A stretch of DNA of 64,000 nucleotides, from assembly GCA_000004985.1 (NCBI GenBank), contig GG738845.1; one strand, 5' to 3'. Position numbers and translations under genes: made by a program. The notes under the pieces were generated by a model. The model was not told the DNA's origin. It saw nothing but the letters and a program-made list of their open reading frames with translations, and ran no database searches. Source of the stretch: Naegleria gruberi. Taxonomy: Eukaryota. How positions within the stretch are numbered: the first letter of the stretch is position 1; each line of letters begins with the position of its first letter. Below, piece by piece: positions 9,581 through 38,545 of the stretch.

Positions 9581-10282
9581 ATGAGTAAAGTGATGATGGA
9601 AAAGAATGTTGAGGAAGATGATCGGGATGAAGAATTAAATTCGGATGATGATCAACACGAAGAACAACAACAACAAACTAATTTGGAGGATGCGTTTAGT
9701 TCTCTTGATAAACGATTAATTAATACATTAAAAAGTCAATACGGAGATGAAATTGTAGGAGATTTAGAATATAAACTAGGAAGTAAAATGATGATTGAAG
9801 ATGATGATGATGAAATTGTTGAAATTATAGATGATGACGACGATCAAATGGAGGATGAGCAAGAAGTAAATGGTGATTCTGCAATTCCTTCACGATATGT
9901 ATTTAGAAATTACGAACCAACAGATTATAAATTAAAAAGATACAAAAAGAGAAATTATGCCACTCTCAATACTAGTGAGAAAACATCCAAGTATTTCGCT
10001 ACTCCAATAGAATCGACTGAAGTCATTTTACGTGATACACTTGCTCCACTGTTGGAAATTGCTGCAAAACAACAAAGCTTGGCAGGATTGGATAAACTTT
10101 TGGTTGGTGAAGATGATAGTGCAGAAATAGCTCTGCTGAAACCTAAAAAGCTCAATGAGGATTTAAAGAGACAGATAAAAACCGAATTGGAATATTTAGA
10201 GAAGCAAACTAATGTTGCTCTCAAGGATATGCTCCAAGAAAGAATTGAAGAGGAGGAAGAGGACTCTGAAGAAGAAGATTAA
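9581..10282 (+). CDS. Cwf18/CCDC12-like spliceosome-associated acidic protein (tentative).
   Basis: The 'VFRNYEPTD' motif and the C-terminal 'PKKLNEDLKRQIKTELEYLEKQTNVALKDMLQERI' resemble the Cwf18 family. I am relying on memory of that family and have not aligned it. Confidence 0.4.
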   Translation: MSKVMMEKNVEEDDRDEELNSDDDQHEEQQQQTNLEDAFSSLDKRLINTLKSQYGDEIVGDLEYKLGSKMMIEDDDDEIVEIIDDDDDQMEDEQEVNGDSAIPSRYVFRNYEPTDYKLKRYKKRNYATLNTSEKTSKYFATPIESTEVILRDTLAPLLEIAAKQQSLAGLDKLLVGEDDSAEIALLKPKKLNEDLKRQIKTELEYLEKQTNVALKDMLQERIEEEEEDSEEED

Positions 10283-10410
10283 TTATTGTAACAATACTAA
10301 ATTATTTCACTTTTTAAATATTTATACTTGAGTTCTAGATAAAGAGTACATCAACCTATTTGTATTGAATTTTGATTTTACAAATTCTGAATATTTTCAA
10401 CTTGAAAAAA

Positions 10411-11759
10411 ATGTCATCATTGCGTTCATTAAAAACAATTTGTTCGGGGAATACTAGTCGAGGAATATTTTCTTTATACAGCAGCAGCAGTAGTAATTTG
10501 TCTACTCTTTCATTATCGAATAAATTCCACTCCTCATCATCATCATTTAATAATAATGCAATAATAGGAATGAATAATCAATGTGCCTTTTATGCAAGAT
10601 TGGTGACTTCAAAGAAAATGGAAATACCATCGGAAGCCTCTACTCTCTCGGAGAAGAGGAAAATAATTCCAAAGGAAGTTATTTCAGAGGAAGATTTGGA
10701 AGAAACAAGTTTTAATCTTTCCTTGTATGTATATTCTTCTTCAACAACAATTAAATTATAAATAATTAATAGACCAAATTCAAAGAGAAATCACATATTA
10801 AAGGAATTGGAAAAATTACCACCAACTCTCGGAGAGGAAGATTTAGTAAAGAGAGAACAAGTGGAAAGAGTTTCTAAATTTTTGGCTCGTGTTGGAGTTT
10901 GTTCTAAACAGCAAGGAGTTGATTTGATAAAGGCAGGTCAAGTGAAAGTGAATGGTATTCTTATTACAGAGAGTGGACAGAAAATGAATCCATTCTATGA
11001 TGTGGTGACTGTTAAAGGTGTAAATGTAAGGTCTTCTTTTTCAATTATTATGAAATATGCTTTAATTTATTCAAATAGATTACAAAGAAGGATGTAGAAA
11101 GTAATTTGGAAAATGTTAAATTATATGCCTATCACAAACCAAGAGGGGTTTTGTGTAGTCGTGTGGATAATGGAGGAAATAGAGAAACAATTTATCAGCG
11201 ATTGGAAAGAATGGGTTTTGGTCATTTGATTTCTGTTGGAAGATTGGATTATAACTCTGAAGGATTAATTCTTTTAACAAATGATGGAAATTTATCGAGA
11301 CATTTGGAATTGCCACAAACAGGACTTGAAAGACAGTATCTTGTCAGAGTTCATGGCCAAGTTTCACAACCTCTATTGGATTCTCTTCAAAAAGGTTCTA
11401 CCATTGAAGGAGTTCACTATGCAGGTATGAAGGCCACTCTTCATAGAGAAGGAGAAAAAACTAGTTGGATTAAAGTAATTCTCCATGAAGGAAAGAACAG
11501 AGAAATCAGAAAAATATTCCAACAATTGAATCTTCCAGTGAGCCGAATTATGAGAATTCAATATGGACCTTACAAATTGGAAAATATTCAAAAAGGACAA
11601 ATCAAAGTTCTAGAACTCAAAGAAGAATTTAAACAAAAATGTTCTAACATTTACAAAACAGCAGTCAGGAGTAAAGAGAAGGAACTGGAAAGAGATTTCA
11701 AAAACAACAGGGCTGGCAATCCTAAGTCAAACAACTCTAAAAGGATACCTGAATTCTAA
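10411..11759 (+). CDS. RluB/RsuA-family pseudouridine synthase with an S4 domain and a presequence-like N-terminus. Three exons: 10411..10724, 10788..11025 and 11079..11759.
   Basis: The S4 domain reads 'VSKFLARVGVCSKQQGVDLIKAGQVKVNGI' and the catalytic region reads 'LYAYHKPRGVLCSRVD...ISVGRLDYNSEGLILLTNDG'. The introns are 10725..10787 (GTATGT...AG) and 11026..11078 (GTAAGG...AG), and phases check at both. Confidence 0.65.
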
Positions 11760-12006: not shown

Positions 12007-12909
12007 ATGAGCAACAACAACAATAATACATCGAATCAGTCGACGGTCTCACTCTCGGTGAATAACAATAGCAGCTCTTTGAATTTAACTACACCAACGA
12101 ATCGGATTGGAAGATCACGTTCTGTTCTTTCAAAGAAGGCAGGAGTGGCGGGAATTGTGGGCTTGGTGGCAAATAATACGAGTGCCAATAGTAGCATTAC
12201 CAGTAATACAAGTACTAACTTGAAAATTCCTGTTCAACGATTAAATCAATCAAAGGATGAAAGTAATACGAGTGGTATAAAGGATGATATAAATAATACG
12301 AGTAGTTTTAGTTATACTAAAGAATTTGAGGAAGAAAAATTGGGAGAGATGAATGATGATGAACTGTTTCAGAAACTCCGAGATATAATTAAGGGAGAAC
12401 AATCGGAGGAATCAATATTACAAGCAAAAGTGGTTAATCGAATTGCTAGTTCAATCAATGAAAAGTATACAACTGAATACATTCAAGAATGGAAACAATT
12501 GAATTTATTTCATTATAAAAAGCTTAATCAACTTGGAAGTGATGCAAAGGATAACATGACAGATTTAAGTACTCTTGTCTATGATCTAATGGCTTTTAAG
12601 GATATTATTCTGGAATATTATACAGTATTACCATACAAATTGTTACAAGATATTGTACTGATTTCATCAAAGTTTTATAGAAAACAAAGTGATTTATTTT
12701 GGAATCTTAGCGAGTTTATGACATATATATTTTATTTTGAAAATGGAAATCCCAAACAAGCAGCAGATATTACGGATTCAGATATTAATTATGATTTTTT
12801 CTCAATGAGGCAGCTCATGTTTCAATACCACCAACAAGAAAAGTTATTAAAAAAATCATCATCTCAGCTGGAAGACTTGAAAAAACATGCAGAAACAAGT
12901 AAGTCATGA
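12007..12909 (+). CDS. Asn/Ser-rich hypothetical protein. It may be the 5' exon of the following gene.
   Basis: The ORF has an A-run ATG and ends 55 nt before the next ORF. A canonical GTAAGT donor lies at 12899, three codons before the stop. Confidence 0.45.
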   Translation: MSNNNNNTSNQSTVSLSVNNNSSSLNLTTPTNRIGRSRSVLSKKAGVAGIVGLVANNTSANSSITSNTSTNLKIPVQRLNQSKDESNTSGIKDDINNTSSFSYTKEFEEEKLGEMNDDELFQKLRDIIKGEQSEESILQAKVVNRIASSINEKYTTEYIQEWKQLNLFHYKKLNQLGSDAKDNMTDLSTLVYDLMAFKDIILEYYTVLPYKLLQDIVLISSKFYRKQSDLFWNLSEFMTYIFYFENGNPKQAADITDSDINYDFFSMRQLMFQYHQQEKLLKKSSSQLEDLKKHAETSKS

Positions 12910-15639: not shown

Positions 15640-16764
15640 TTACACGCTCGAAAAACCCTTTTCATAAAGACCAGAAGATTTGGTGGTATTATATACTGGT
15701 TTTTGGATAAATTCTGTGAATGAATTATCTCTGAAAGGGTCATAATAGTCAGAAACGACAATTGGTTCTTCAAAAATATGACCATCATAAATCATTCTCT
15801 TTACAATTTCAGAGATTGTCAAACAATCACACAATCCACTGTGGTGTTGGCCAACAAAAGACAAACCACTTTGATCAACCATAGATTTCAAACCACGAAC
15901 AAAGGCATATGGATAGCATTTGGAATATTCCTTTCTCAAATCATAAAAAGTTCTGAAATATGAGTCGAATGAAATACCCTTTGTTGTTGCTTCCTTGATG
16001 AGTAATCCCTTGATATCCCATTCACTATCAGTTAGAATGCAAAAAGTTTTACCATCTGTAAAAGTTTTCTTGACATAGTTATGGAAGTTTTGAATGGCAT
16101 TACTGAGAGAAATTCCTTCCTTTTCTAAAATCTCATCAGTAATACCTGTTAGTTGAGTGCAGAATGGTGTCAATTTATCACTCCAAGTTGGTTTTACATA
16201 GTATCGTTCCTTATGAATTACCTCCATTGATGCAAGGTCAAAAACAACAAATGGAAATTCAATCATTTCCTGATTGTCACGAGTAATAACTGGATTTACT
16301 CCATTATCACAAGTAGCTTCAAAATCAATAATAACTAAATAATCATATCTATGACGTCCATTATGAATTTCATAGAATTGATTTTGTTGTTGGAATTGAT
16401 CAAAATCAATATAGGATTTTGACTTGTGTTTTCTAGCATTATTTGGAGGAGAGGAAGAATAATATGACTTGTTCTTTTGATGACGAGAAGGGAATCGGTT
16501 AGGAGTGTATGTTGATTGATTAAAGTTAGTAGTATTATTATTCTTTGGTGACTTGTTTTGATTACGGTTATTTCTATATTGATGATTAGGTGATCGTTTG
16601 AATGGTGACGATTGTACTTCTTCATTGACTTCTATAGGAAATATACAAGCATCTTCATAATCACTATTCTGAATAGCATTGGAATTTTGATCAAGAGTTG
16701 ATGATGATGATGATGGACTGGTTGGAGTGTCCAATCTCATATTTGTAGTGCTTTGATAAAACAT
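15640..16764 (-). CDS. DEDDh 3'-5' exonuclease of the ERI-1/3'hExo family.
   Basis: Exonuclease motif I 'VIIDFEATC' is present, followed by 'EMIEFPFVVF' and '...GQHHSGLCD' (the H of DEDDh). Confidence 0.6.
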   Translation of the reverse strand: MFYQSTTNMRLDTPTSPSSSSSTLDQNSNAIQNSDYEDACIFPIEVNEEVQSSPFKRSPNHQYRNNRNQNKSPKNNNTTNFNQSTYTPNRFPSRHQKNKSYYSSSPPNNARKHKSKSYIDFDQFQQQNQFYEIHNGRHRYDYLVIIDFEATCDNGVNPVITRDNQEMIEFPFVVFDLASMEVIHKERYYVKPTWSDKLTPFCTQLTGITDEILEKEGISLSNAIQNFHNYVKKTFTDGKTFCILTDSEWDIKGLLIKEATTKGISFDSYFRTFYDLRKEYSKCYPYAFVRGLKSMVDQSGLSFVGQHHSGLCDCLTISEIVKRMIYDGHIFEEPIVVSDYYDPFRDNSFTEFIQKPVYNTTKSSGLYEKGFSSV

Positions 16765-21189: not shown

Positions 21190-22749
21190 TTACTTTTCCA
21201 TGATAACATCTTGACCACTCAACATGAAAGGAACAAGTGGCTTTGGAATTTTAACACCTAATTTACCGTTTTCATCATAAAATTGATTATTCTCTAAAAT
21301 AGTAATGATGGCTCTAGGAACAGCCATTGCAGTACCATTTAACGTATGTGGATAAACAGTAGTATTGTTAGATCTGTATCTGATATTCAATTTACGAGAT
21401 TGGTAATCAGTACAGTTGGAAGCAGAAGAAACTTCACCATAACCTAAACGGCTTGGAATAAATGCTTCCATATCAATCTTTCTGAAAGCAGGATTTCCCA
21501 AATCATTACAAGGCATGTCAAGAATTTGGAAATGGAATCCCAATTCACTAAATATTTCTTCTTGAATGGAAACAATTTCATCTAAGAGAGCTTCACTTTG
21601 TTCAGGTTCACAATAGACAAACATTTCAACTTTGGTAAATTGATGTACACGATAGAGTCCTCGATCCTTGCTTCCTGCAGCTCCTGCTTCAGTTCTGAAG
21701 CAATGAGAAAGACCAGCATACTTCAATGGTCCCTTGAAATTAGGCATGAATTCATTACAATGGAGAGCAGCCAAACCTATTTCACTTGTACCAATCAAGC
21801 ATAAAGAATCATTACAAGTTTCACCATTCTTAGTGGTGGTTGGTTCTTGATTTGAATTTTCAATTCTATAGATTTGAGAGTGTTCACCTCTTGGTTGGAA
21901 ACCACATCCTTCAACAATTGATTGCTTCATCAATTCTGGTGGCATGATGATTTTAAAGCCACGTTTTAACAATTTGGAGATGGCAAAATTTTGCAAGGCA
22001 ACTTCCAATAAGACACCTTCATTCTTCAAGAAGAAAAATTTGGAACCGGAACATTCATTGGCAGGTTCAAACAAGTCCAACTTTTCACAAATTTCATAAT
22101 GTGATAATTTTGGAATTGTTTCCTTCTTTTCTCCAACATACTTGACAAGATTTGGTTGATTGGAATTTTCTTTAGAGAACTTCATGACACCTTCTTCGGT
22201 AAAGTTTGGTAATTTAACTGTCTTTTCACACAATTCTTGATACACTTCGTTTTTAATCTTTTCTAAATTTTGAATTTTAGTTTTAAATTCCTTTCCGATA
22301 ACTTTCCAACTATCTGCTTTTTTGTTTTCCAAATCTTCTTTGATTAAATTTTTAATTTCAATAGGAACTTGTTCCGATGTTCTTTTACCTGCCAAGTATT
22401 CAGCAATTTCCTTTCTAAGATATTGCACTTGTTCATATTCTTGATCAATTTGAATATATTGTTCATAATTTTTCAACACTTGGTCTAAATCAATATTTAA
22501 TTCTCTCAATTTAATATTTTCCTTCATTTCATCTTGTTTTTCAATCATCTTTTCAAAATTATAATTGTATGGTAAATTCTTGGCCTTGTGTTCTTGTTGT
22601 TGGCTTGCTGCTACATTATTGGTATGGAATGTTCTAGCAGTGTTATTATTACTAGTCATACGAATTAACCATGATCTACAACTAGCCCGTGCTGATGATG
22701 CGCACGAGCGTAAAAGTGATGAAGGAAGGCTTTTATGATGATGAAACAT
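21190..22749 (-). CDS. Seryl-tRNA synthetase of the eukaryotic cytosolic type, with a roughly 70-aa presequence-like N-terminal extension.
   Basis: Class II motifs are present: 'FRTEAGAAGSKDRGLYRVHQFTKVE', 'SSASNCTDYQSRKLNIRYRS', and the eukaryotic C-terminal 'PFMLSG'. The first ATG has an A-run context. Confidence 0.8.
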   Translation of the reverse strand: MFHHHKSLPSSLLRSCASSARASCRSWLIRMTSNNNTARTFHTNNVAASQQQEHKAKNLPYNYNFEKMIEKQDEMKENIKLRELNIDLDQVLKNYEQYIQIDQEYEQVQYLRKEIAEYLAGKRTSEQVPIEIKNLIKEDLENKKADSWKVIGKEFKTKIQNLEKIKNEVYQELCEKTVKLPNFTEEGVMKFSKENSNQPNLVKYVGEKKETIPKLSHYEICEKLDLFEPANECSGSKFFFLKNEGVLLEVALQNFAISKLLKRGFKIIMPPELMKQSIVEGCGFQPRGEHSQIYRIENSNQEPTTTKNGETCNDSLCLIGTSEIGLAALHCNEFMPNFKGPLKYAGLSHCFRTEAGAAGSKDRGLYRVHQFTKVEMFVYCEPEQSEALLDEIVSIQEEIFSELGFHFQILDMPCNDLGNPAFRKIDMEAFIPSRLGYGEVSSASNCTDYQSRKLNIRYRSNNTTVYPHTLNGTAMAVPRAIITILENNQFYDENGKLGVKIPKPLVPFMLSGQDVIMEK

Positions 22750-37702: not shown

Positions 37703-38545
37703 TTATACAAGTTTTGAAATGTTTTTGTGTAAATTGTCTTCCGAGAAGGATGAGATGAGAGAACAGTTGAATTCATCATAATTAATAACTCTATTTGTTT
37801 GGCCCATTAACATGAGCAAGTCGCCATTCCTTATAACACTCTCCTTAATGATGGTTTTTCCATCATAGTCATACTTAAGATTTGAATCATTACACAGTAC
37901 TTTCATATGATTGACTCGAGCAAAATCTTGAAGTGAATCAAGGAGAGGACTTAACTCTCTCGAATGTAGATAAAGAGTTCGTTCTCTTTGCAAGATGGTC
38001 AGTAATTCGTCCTTTTGGAGTGCTTTCAGTTCTCCACCATTGAGTAGACGATCCGATAGATCAATTTGTATCAGTTCTCGAGTGGAATTATCTCTCAAAT
38101 CTCTTTGGAAAATGAAATCCAATGGCTTTTTGAAAAGTAAATATTCCACCAATACTTGATTGGAAAACATGGATTCCTTCTCAACACGATAATGAAGAGC
38201 AACAATGTCTCTATCACTCCTACTACTTGTTGGTTGCTTCATTTCTTTCAAATTGGGAGCACAGAATTGTGGCTTTTCCAGTATGATATCATTATCTAAA
38301 CTTGATGTCTTGATGAATCCATATATCTTGGTCTTTCTTCCATCGAGTAAAAGCTCATCCCGTGGCAGCGTTTTATATTCATCCTTTATTTGAGTGAGAA
38401 GTTGATCTACATATCGTGATCGGAAGAGTGAAAAATTTCTTGTTGAGTTATGACGACCATGAAATATTATGGATGACGATGATGATCCATGTAAGATGTT
38501 GTATTTAATAATTAAATTGTTGCTTCCAGTTGTTAGTCTTTTCAT
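37703..38545 (-). CDS. Hypothetical protein.
   Basis: A 280-aa ORF with an A-run ATG. It is divergent from the F-box gene and the two share an E2F-like site. Confidence 0.45.
   Translation of the reverse strand: MKRLTTGSNNLIIKYNILHGSSSSSIIFHGRHNSTRNFSLFRSRYVDQLLTQIKDEYKTLPRDELLLDGRKTKIYGFIKTSSLDNDIILEKPQFCAPNLKEMKQPTSSRSDRDIVALHYRVEKESMFSNQVLVEYLLFKKPLDFIFQRDLRDNSTRELIQIDLSDRLLNGGELKALQKDELLTILQRERTLYLHSRELSPLLDSLQDFARVNHMKVLCNDSNLKYDYDGKTIIKESVIRNGDLLMLMGQTNRVINYDEFNCSLISSFSEDNLHKNISKLV

Follow-up and report, generated by a model that had tools for sequence, protein, structure and literature searches.

The window analysed here is a 64,000-nucleotide stretch of nuclear DNA from Naegleria gruberi (GenBank assembly GCA_000004985.1, contig GG738845.1), with a GC content of ~32%, closely spaced genes and short introns. 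Between positions 10411 and 11759 on its plus strand lies a gene for a pseudouridine synthase of the RsuA family, whose product, an RluB-like protein with a long N-terminal extension, is likely to act in the mitochondrion. The original prediction made for this locus, a spliced gene encoding an S4 domain followed by an RsuA/RluB catalytic domain with a VGRLD motif, held: the gene has three exons and occupies exactly these coordinates. Its structure is as follows.

10411..11759, plus strand: whole gene, from ATG to TAA stop, three exons, encoding a 415-residue RluB-like pseudouridine synthase
10411..10724, plus strand: exon 1, residues 1-104 plus 2 nt of codon 105
10725..10772, plus strand: intron 1, 48 nt, GTATGT...TAG, phase 2
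10773..11025, plus strand: exon 2
11026..11078, plus strand: intron 2, 53 nt, GTAAGG...TAG, phase 0
11079..11759, plus strand: exon 3, residues 190-415 plus the TAA stop

Retention of intron 1 would bring in an in-frame stop, and the positions and phases of both introns are shared with a related Naegleria-like contig, L001 (ENA ERZ2098899). Exon 2 ends with two in-frame GT donors 6 nt apart, GTAAAT at 11020 and GTAAGG at 11026. The donor after 11019, although in frame, was rejected, and the donor after 11025 is preferred because its product is colinear with the deposited N. gruberi RefSeq protein and with the intronless orthologue of Willaertia magna. Alternative use of the two donors would gain or lose Val-Asn.

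The encoded protein shows the S4-linker-core architecture of the RsuA family, as described (PMC12710931), and the family's xxGRLD motif, as defined previously (PMC8910892). Its domains and predicted catalytic residues map to the window as follows.

10867..10980, plus strand: S4 RNA-binding domain, residues 137-174 (PF01479, E-value 2.9e-7)
11121..11615, plus strand: pseudouridine synthase catalytic domain, residues 204-368 (PF00849, TIGR00093, Foldseek)
11235..11249, plus strand: V242-G-R-L-D246, the xxGRLD motif, with the catalytic Asp D246 (11247-11249) and the conserved Arg R244
11337..11339, plus strand: Y276 in 'ERQY', aligned with the Tyr of 'EREY' in Escherichia coli RluB
11616..11756, plus strand: Lys-rich helical C-terminal tail, residues 369-415

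PF00849 (PseudoU_synth_2) matched residues 204-338 with an E-value of 1.4e-19 (71.3 bits against a cutoff of 26.8), and the RsuA-type subfamily model TIGR00093 was passed with 140.8 bits (cutoff 109.3). G243, R244, L245, D246 and Y276 were invariant across a 102-sequence alignment. In the AlphaFold2 model built from this alignment, most of the S4 and catalytic domains had a mean predicted local distance difference test score (pLDDT) exceeding 90; the 10-residue blocks of the S4 domain scored 86-97. When this model was compared with the PDB by Foldseek, the top match was the RluB-RNA complex 4lgt (E-value 1.4e-20, target template-modelling score 0.77), followed by RluF (3dh3, 2.8e-19), RsuA (1vio, 1e-16) and RluE (2oml, 5e-16); RluA, RluC and RluD matched far more weakly than the RsuA-family structures. 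By all features tested, namely profiles, motif, architecture and fold, the protein is a member of the RsuA family.

Among the RsuA-family paralogues, RluB was consistently the closest. The best PDB sequence matches were E. coli RluB entries 4LAB and 9CL9 (E-values about 2.4e-34 to 2.5e-34, residues 135-367), and RluB scored 122 bits in the phmmer search of the PDB, compared with 70 for RluF, 66 for RluE and 61 for RsuA. The NCBIfam paralogue models gave the same ranking (RluB 135.7 bits, RluF 77.8, RluE 68.1, RsuA 61.2). RluB orthology is thus supported by the best-scoring paralogue model, and we use the name 'RluB-like, RsuA family'. An active-site Tyr of RluB makes a covalent adduct with 5-fluorouracil RNA (PMC12710931), and from the alignment we infer that Y276 is the corresponding residue. 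The enzyme is apparently complete and catalytically competent, as judged from its conserved residues. In the C-terminal tail, Cys377 (in a '[HKY]-C-[SN]' context) was shared by the whole heterolobosean clade but by none of the bacterial relatives.

The start codon bears directly on what precedes the S4 domain, since the public gene model begins further downstream. Two features are relevant here.

9581..10282, plus strand: cwf18-like splicing factor gene, immediately upstream
10570..10572, plus strand: Met54, start of the RefSeq/GenBank model, probably an internal Met

Residues 54-415 are 100% identical over 362 residues to N. gruberi XP_002683299.1 / EFC50555.1 / D2UX35 (NAEGRDRAFT_61621), which the database entry describes as a 362-residue 'predicted protein' on a 1.56-Mb scaffold. 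The start at 10411 proposed earlier adds 53 N-terminal residues to this model, and the N-terminal peptide quoted with it is indeed obtained when translation starts with the ATG at 10411. The 128-nt spacer between the stop of the cwf18-like gene (10282) and 10411 contains no ATG in any frame, so that a ribosome scanning a transcript initiated in the spacer would reach 10411 first. The reading frame of this start is open from 10372, and when 10414-10569 was shuffled by mononucleotides, only 1.8% of trials kept the frame free of stops. Furthermore, L001 bears an orthologue that is 78% identical in the core (the gene is also found on L002, a Logan assembly). Exon 1 of L001 comprises 108 codons, its start context, TTGAAAAAAATGTC, is identical to window positions 10401-10414, and it has no Met where N. 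gruberi has Met54. Because of the first-ATG position, the open frame and the conservation of the exon in L001, position 10411 is better supported as the start than 10570, and the RefSeq model is most likely short by 53 residues. A localisation prediction run on the public 362-residue model would miss the presumed targeting part, and the same kind of truncation may affect further N. gruberi models for organelle-targeted proteins.

Translated from 10411, the protein carries 136 residues ahead of the S4 domain, longer than the approximately 100 given in the original prediction; bacterial RluB starts only a few residues before S4. This extension divides into a leader that resembles a presequence and a conserved module that would remain at the N-terminus of the mature protein.

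10411..10620, plus strand: presequence-like segment, residues 1-70, without Asp or Glu, Ser/Thr-rich, predicted to be disordered
10585..10593, plus strand: aromatic-Ala motif F59-Y60-A61, candidate processing-peptidase site
10621..10866, plus strand: charged acidic linker, residues 71-136, interrupted by intron 1, partly conserved
10777..10812, plus strand: clade-conserved helix, residues 107-118, between the leader and S4

Residues 1-70 contain no acidic residue, 3 Arg and 4 Lys, giving a net charge of +7, and Ser/Thr make up 22 of the opening 60 residues. Acidic residues begin with E71, and nine occur among residues 1-100. The earlier description of an acid-free N-terminus rich in Ser, Arg and hydroxylated residues is therefore correct for acidity over residues 1-70 and fails beyond them, and it is correct for Ser/Thr and overstated for Arg. 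Mean pLDDT per 10-residue block was 33-54 for residues 1-70 and 33-56 for residues 1-100, consistent with predicted disorder, and the maximum hydrophobic moment of the N-terminus (0.52 in an 11-residue window) was unremarkable. The helix at residues 107-118 was predicted with a block pLDDT of 83-91 (blocks 101-120). It is absent from bacterial RluB, and its pattern, R-x-x-[IV]-x-K-E-[LI]-x-x-L-P, occurs in all heterolobosean orthologues; it may serve as a mitoribosome contact.

An N-terminal extension was present in all ciliate and all inspected heterolobosean orthologues, and in nearly all of them an aromatic-Ala motif stood at its end.

N. gruberi: AFYARLVTSKK
L001: HSYATVISK
Willaertia: RNYAEVINKK
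P0005: RMYAKLVTKK
P0003: APFATRIS
Tetrahymena: QYFARR
Euplotes: RFFARK

In Willaertia, P0005 and Euplotes, Arg occupies the -3 position of the motif, and these three fully match R-x-[FYL]-[AS], the 'R-3' site classically recognised by MPP/Icp55. The N-termini of P0003 and P0005 are presequence-like; that of P0004 is not, and is possibly incomplete. From the conservation of the motif, cleavage in N. gruberi would probably fall near F59-Y60-A61.

The relatives of the protein point to an alphaproteobacterial affinity. The N-extended proteins of N. gruberi, the L001 species and Willaertia magna (KAL9652863.1, 65% identity) form a tight clade with three environmental sequences, and outside this heterolobosean clade the next-best matches are proteins of bacterial length. 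The named bacterial matches among the top 120 were all alphaproteobacterial (Granulibacter, Rhodospirillales, Rhodobacterales, Bradyrhizobium), and named alphaproteobacterial relatives scored ~190-195 bits compared with 122 bits for E. coli RluB. In a bacterial scan covering one genome per GTDB species, in which candidates were sequences with the patterns [YH]EGKNREI and KLY..KP, the matches listed came almost only from Alphaproteobacteria, with 42-47% identity, a result that is suggestive but biased by the motif restriction. Ciliates (three Tetrahymena species, Paramecium and Euplotes) also have N-extended RluB-like proteins whose nearest neighbours are alphaproteobacterial. In a neighbour-joining tree (226 columns, 100 bootstraps, E. 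coli RluB as outgroup), Heterolobosea (100%) and ciliates (100%) were sisters with 72% bootstrap support and adjoined an alphaproteobacteria-like cluster; this tree is indicative only, given its small and biased bacterial sampling and possible long-branch attraction. The ciliate extensions themselves vary, with 36 to ~240 residues before S4 (P0133, P0205, P0209, P0223), and a short basic leader is closed by [YFG]-F-A-R-[RK], which resembles the heterolobosean motif; Paramecium, with the shortest extension, lacks it.

Taken together, we consider it likely that this nuclear, intron-bearing gene encodes an RluB-like synthase acting in the mitochondrion. Gene structure, domains, family, catalytic residues, fold, organism and the conservation of exon 1 are established directly; import, cleavage site, rRNA target and origin are inferred. 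The mitochondrion is favoured as the compartment because the substrate of the RsuA family is bacterial-type rRNA and because Naegleria is not known to have a plastid. According to this proposal, the protein would be synthesised in the cytosol with its long N-terminal extension, and residues ~1-60/70, which are acid-free, basic and hydroxyl-rich, would act as a mitochondrial targeting presequence and direct import into the matrix. The presequence would be removed near the conserved F59-Y60-A61, at about residue 60, leaving a mature enzyme that retains the charged helix, the S4 domain and the catalytic domain with R244, D246 and Y276. While the ribosome is being assembled, the S4 domain and core would then engage the mitochondrial large-subunit rRNA around helix 93, and a uridine would be converted to pseudouridine via Asp246, the most likely target being the equivalent of E. 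coli U2605, the RluB site.

As to origin, the gene is probably descended from the alphaproteobacterial ancestor of mitochondria, as the similarity searches and the tree suggest. More tentatively, and with slightly less than even confidence, we propose that an RluB-type synthase belonged to the ancestral mitochondrial ribosome-maturation toolkit, brought in by the alphaproteobacterial endosymbiont, that Heterolobosea, ciliates and perhaps further protists kept it, and that opisthokonts and kinetoplastids, whose mitochondrial large-subunit rRNA is served by RluA-type enzymes, lost it. If so, a helix-93 pseudouridine at the U2605 equivalent would be expected in heterolobosean and ciliate mitochondrial ribosomes. 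Such a history would be at odds with recent reviews, which hold that eukaryotes lack the RsuA family.

Several observations weigh against a mitochondrial RluB of alphaproteobacterial descent. The leader is atypical as a presequence, being Arg-poor, long and Ser-rich, and the N. gruberi protein has no Arg at -2 or -3 of the putative cleavage motif. With 135.7 bits, the protein does not reach the cutoff of 290 of the RluB equivalog model NF007976; we consider this model narrow, because proteins annotated as alphaproteobacterial RluB also fall under its cutoff, with 146-173 bits. The alphaproteobacterial affinity rests on a similarity ranking, a pattern-restricted scan and a small neighbour-joining tree. 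Finally, 61621, XP_002683299 and D2UX35 were not found among the entries listed of the N. gruberi mitochondrial proteome table (PMC8134430), which is uninformative for a table available in part; the entries listed do include an RluA-family synthase.

The protein could also be mitochondrial and yet owe its essential role to its structure, as an rRNA-folding or ribosome-assembly chaperone whose pseudouridylation is dispensable or absent. There are two precedents for this: plant SVR1 rescues its mutant even when the catalytic Asp has been changed (PMC8910892), and Trypanosoma brucei mt-LAF3 remains functional as D211A (bioRxiv 10.1101/2023.02.23.529727). In addition, E. coli RluB was captured on a pre-50S intermediate (PDB 9cl9). 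Helix 107-118 and the long Lys-rich tail could likewise be ribosome-contact elements. However, no orthologue from Heterolobosea or ciliates departs from R244, D246, Y276 or the GKNREIR motif, whereas the corresponding motifs of mt-LAF3 and RPUSD3 are degenerate. This strict conservation argues that catalysis has been retained, and we regard a structural role in place of catalysis as unlikely; a chaperone role and catalysis are not mutually exclusive.

A different history for the gene, in which it was acquired horizontally from a bacterium in a single lineage, or entered the assembly as a contaminant, and did not descend from the endosymbiont, appears quite improbable to us. It would fit the patchy distribution of the family in eukaryotes, where it was observed in Heterolobosea, ciliates and plants and where opisthokonts and trypanosomes use RluA-type enzymes, and also the bacterial next-best matches of the heterolobosean clade. 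Bacterial contamination is nevertheless ruled out by the two spliceosomal introns shared with a related species, a base composition of 32% GC like that of the neighbours, and eukaryotic flanking genes. Its occurrence in Naegleria and Willaertia, as well as in three more divergent relatives, makes the gene old within the group, and Heterolobosea and ciliates, both with alphaproteobacterial nearest neighbours, came together in the neighbour-joining tree.

It is very unlikely that the protein is not imported and acts on cytosolic or nuclear RNA, either because the public model rightly begins at Met54 or because the N-terminus is a Naegleria low-complexity Ser/Asn tract, as in the open reading frame at 12007, which has no mitochondrial signature and a Ser/Asn-rich N-terminus free of acidic residues until residue 84 (the protein's absence from the listed part of the mitochondrial proteome table, PMC8134430, would also agree): 10411 is the first ATG past the upstream gene and would be used by a scanning ribosome, a related species without the internal Met has kept exon 1 as an open reading frame and has an identical start context, Arg and Lys are both lacking among the first 30 residues of the product at 12007 whereas the RluB-like N-terminus is basic, every eukaryotic orthologue inspected at its N-terminus is extended, RsuA-family substrates are only bacterial-type rRNA, and the only eukaryotic member whose location is established is an organellar protein.

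Besides the RluB-like gene, the window holds three genes for proteins with similar N-termini, and a downstream neighbour of the RluB-like gene was also identified.

15640..16764, minus strand: gene for an RNase T/DEDD exonuclease-domain protein, downstream neighbour
21190..22749, minus strand: seryl-tRNA synthetase (TIGR00414, 348 bits against 301.65), with ~70 extra residues
22855..24291, minus strand: Era (TIGR00436, 118.6 bits against 116.25), with ~190 extra N-terminal residues
57107..58027, plus strand: UbiG/COQ3 (TIGR01983, 267 bits against 102.95)

The first acidic residue stands at position 68 in Era, 53 in seryl-tRNA synthetase and 63 in UbiG/COQ3, each with 4-6 basic residues within the first 30; in most other open reading frames of the window, an acidic residue appears by position 30. 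The presence of Era, an N-extended seryl-tRNA synthetase and COQ3, from which the original prediction had argued for an organelle with its own ribosomes, was thus confirmed by the three profiles, and their acid-free, basic N-termini resemble that of the RluB-like protein. The argument itself also proved sound, as the N. gruberi mitochondrial genome of 49,843 bp devotes 11.9% to rRNA and tRNA genes (PMC4202320). Its corollary, that this is not a mitosome-only lineage, was correct in outcome, the organism being N. gruberi, a protist with aerobic mitochondria.

The Era and seryl-tRNA synthetase genes adjoin on the minus strand, both with presequence-like N-termini. A 280-residue open reading frame at 37703-38545 (minus strand) also has a basic N-terminus (MKRLTTGSNNLIIKYNILHGSSSSS...), acid-free over its first 46 positions; it had no Pfam or NCBIfam match, and its product may be another mitochondrial protein. 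The Willaertia magna locus (L003) showed no synteny: its neighbouring genes differ, and the intronless orthologue there follows an iron-type alcohol dehydrogenase (Fe-ADH) gene.

The RsuA/RluB family is rarely recognised in eukaryotes, and RsuA-type enzymes have been stated to be unknown there (bioRxiv 10.1101/2023.02.23.529727; PMC12710931). The heterolobosean and ciliate proteins, together with SVR1, put the RsuA family in eukaryotes, here probably in mitochondria, and would enlarge the reconstructed ancestral mitochondrial proteome by one enzyme that modifies rRNA. In the literature we found no characterised mitochondrial RsuA-family member, and the paper on the Andalucia godoyi mitoproteome names pseudouridine synthases only generically. 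The gene itself has been public since the release of the N. gruberi genome, as an unnamed predicted protein, and the enzyme family is well understood. What is new here is an uncharacterised eukaryotic RluB-like member and the correction of its gene model; the mechanism is as expected.

Compared with known systems, the synthases and synthase-like assembly factors of other mitochondria are the more distant counterparts. Yeast Pus5, human RPUSD4 and RPUSD3 and T. brucei mt-LAF3 are likewise nuclear-encoded and act on mitochondrial large-subunit rRNA, but they are of the RluA type, with an HRLD motif and different target sites. Mitochondrial RluA-type structures were only distant Foldseek matches (5uba, E-value 3.8e-6; 6yxx, 6.2e-6), and mt-LAF3 was rejected as a relative since it is an RluA-family protein. 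The ciliate RluB-like proteins of Tetrahymena thermophila (annotated 'tRNA rRNA pseudouridine synthase, putative'), Paramecium and Euplotes share the domain order, the N-terminal extension and, except in Paramecium, the aromatic-Ala-Arg/Lys motif; they differ in their unrelated linkers, have 37-41% core identity and are also uncharacterised.

Plant SVR1 (AtRSUA1, At2g39140), the only characterised eukaryotic member of the RsuA family, resembles the Naegleria protein in being a nuclear-encoded, N-extended xxGRLD enzyme for an organelle with bacterial-type ribosomes (PMC8910892); the likeness is by description only, and SVR1 differs in being chloroplastic and in having a catalytic Asp that is dispensable for complementation. 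Bacterial RluB (4LAB, 4LGT, 9CL9) has the same order of S4 domain, linker and RsuA-type core, the xxGRLD motif, the active-site Tyr and GKNREIR, and the Naegleria protein is 42-47% identical to alphaproteobacterial proteins and 33-37% identical to E. coli RluB. Unlike these bacterial enzymes, it has ~136 extra N-terminal residues and a Lys-rich tail of ~45 residues, and it is encoded by a spliced nuclear gene.

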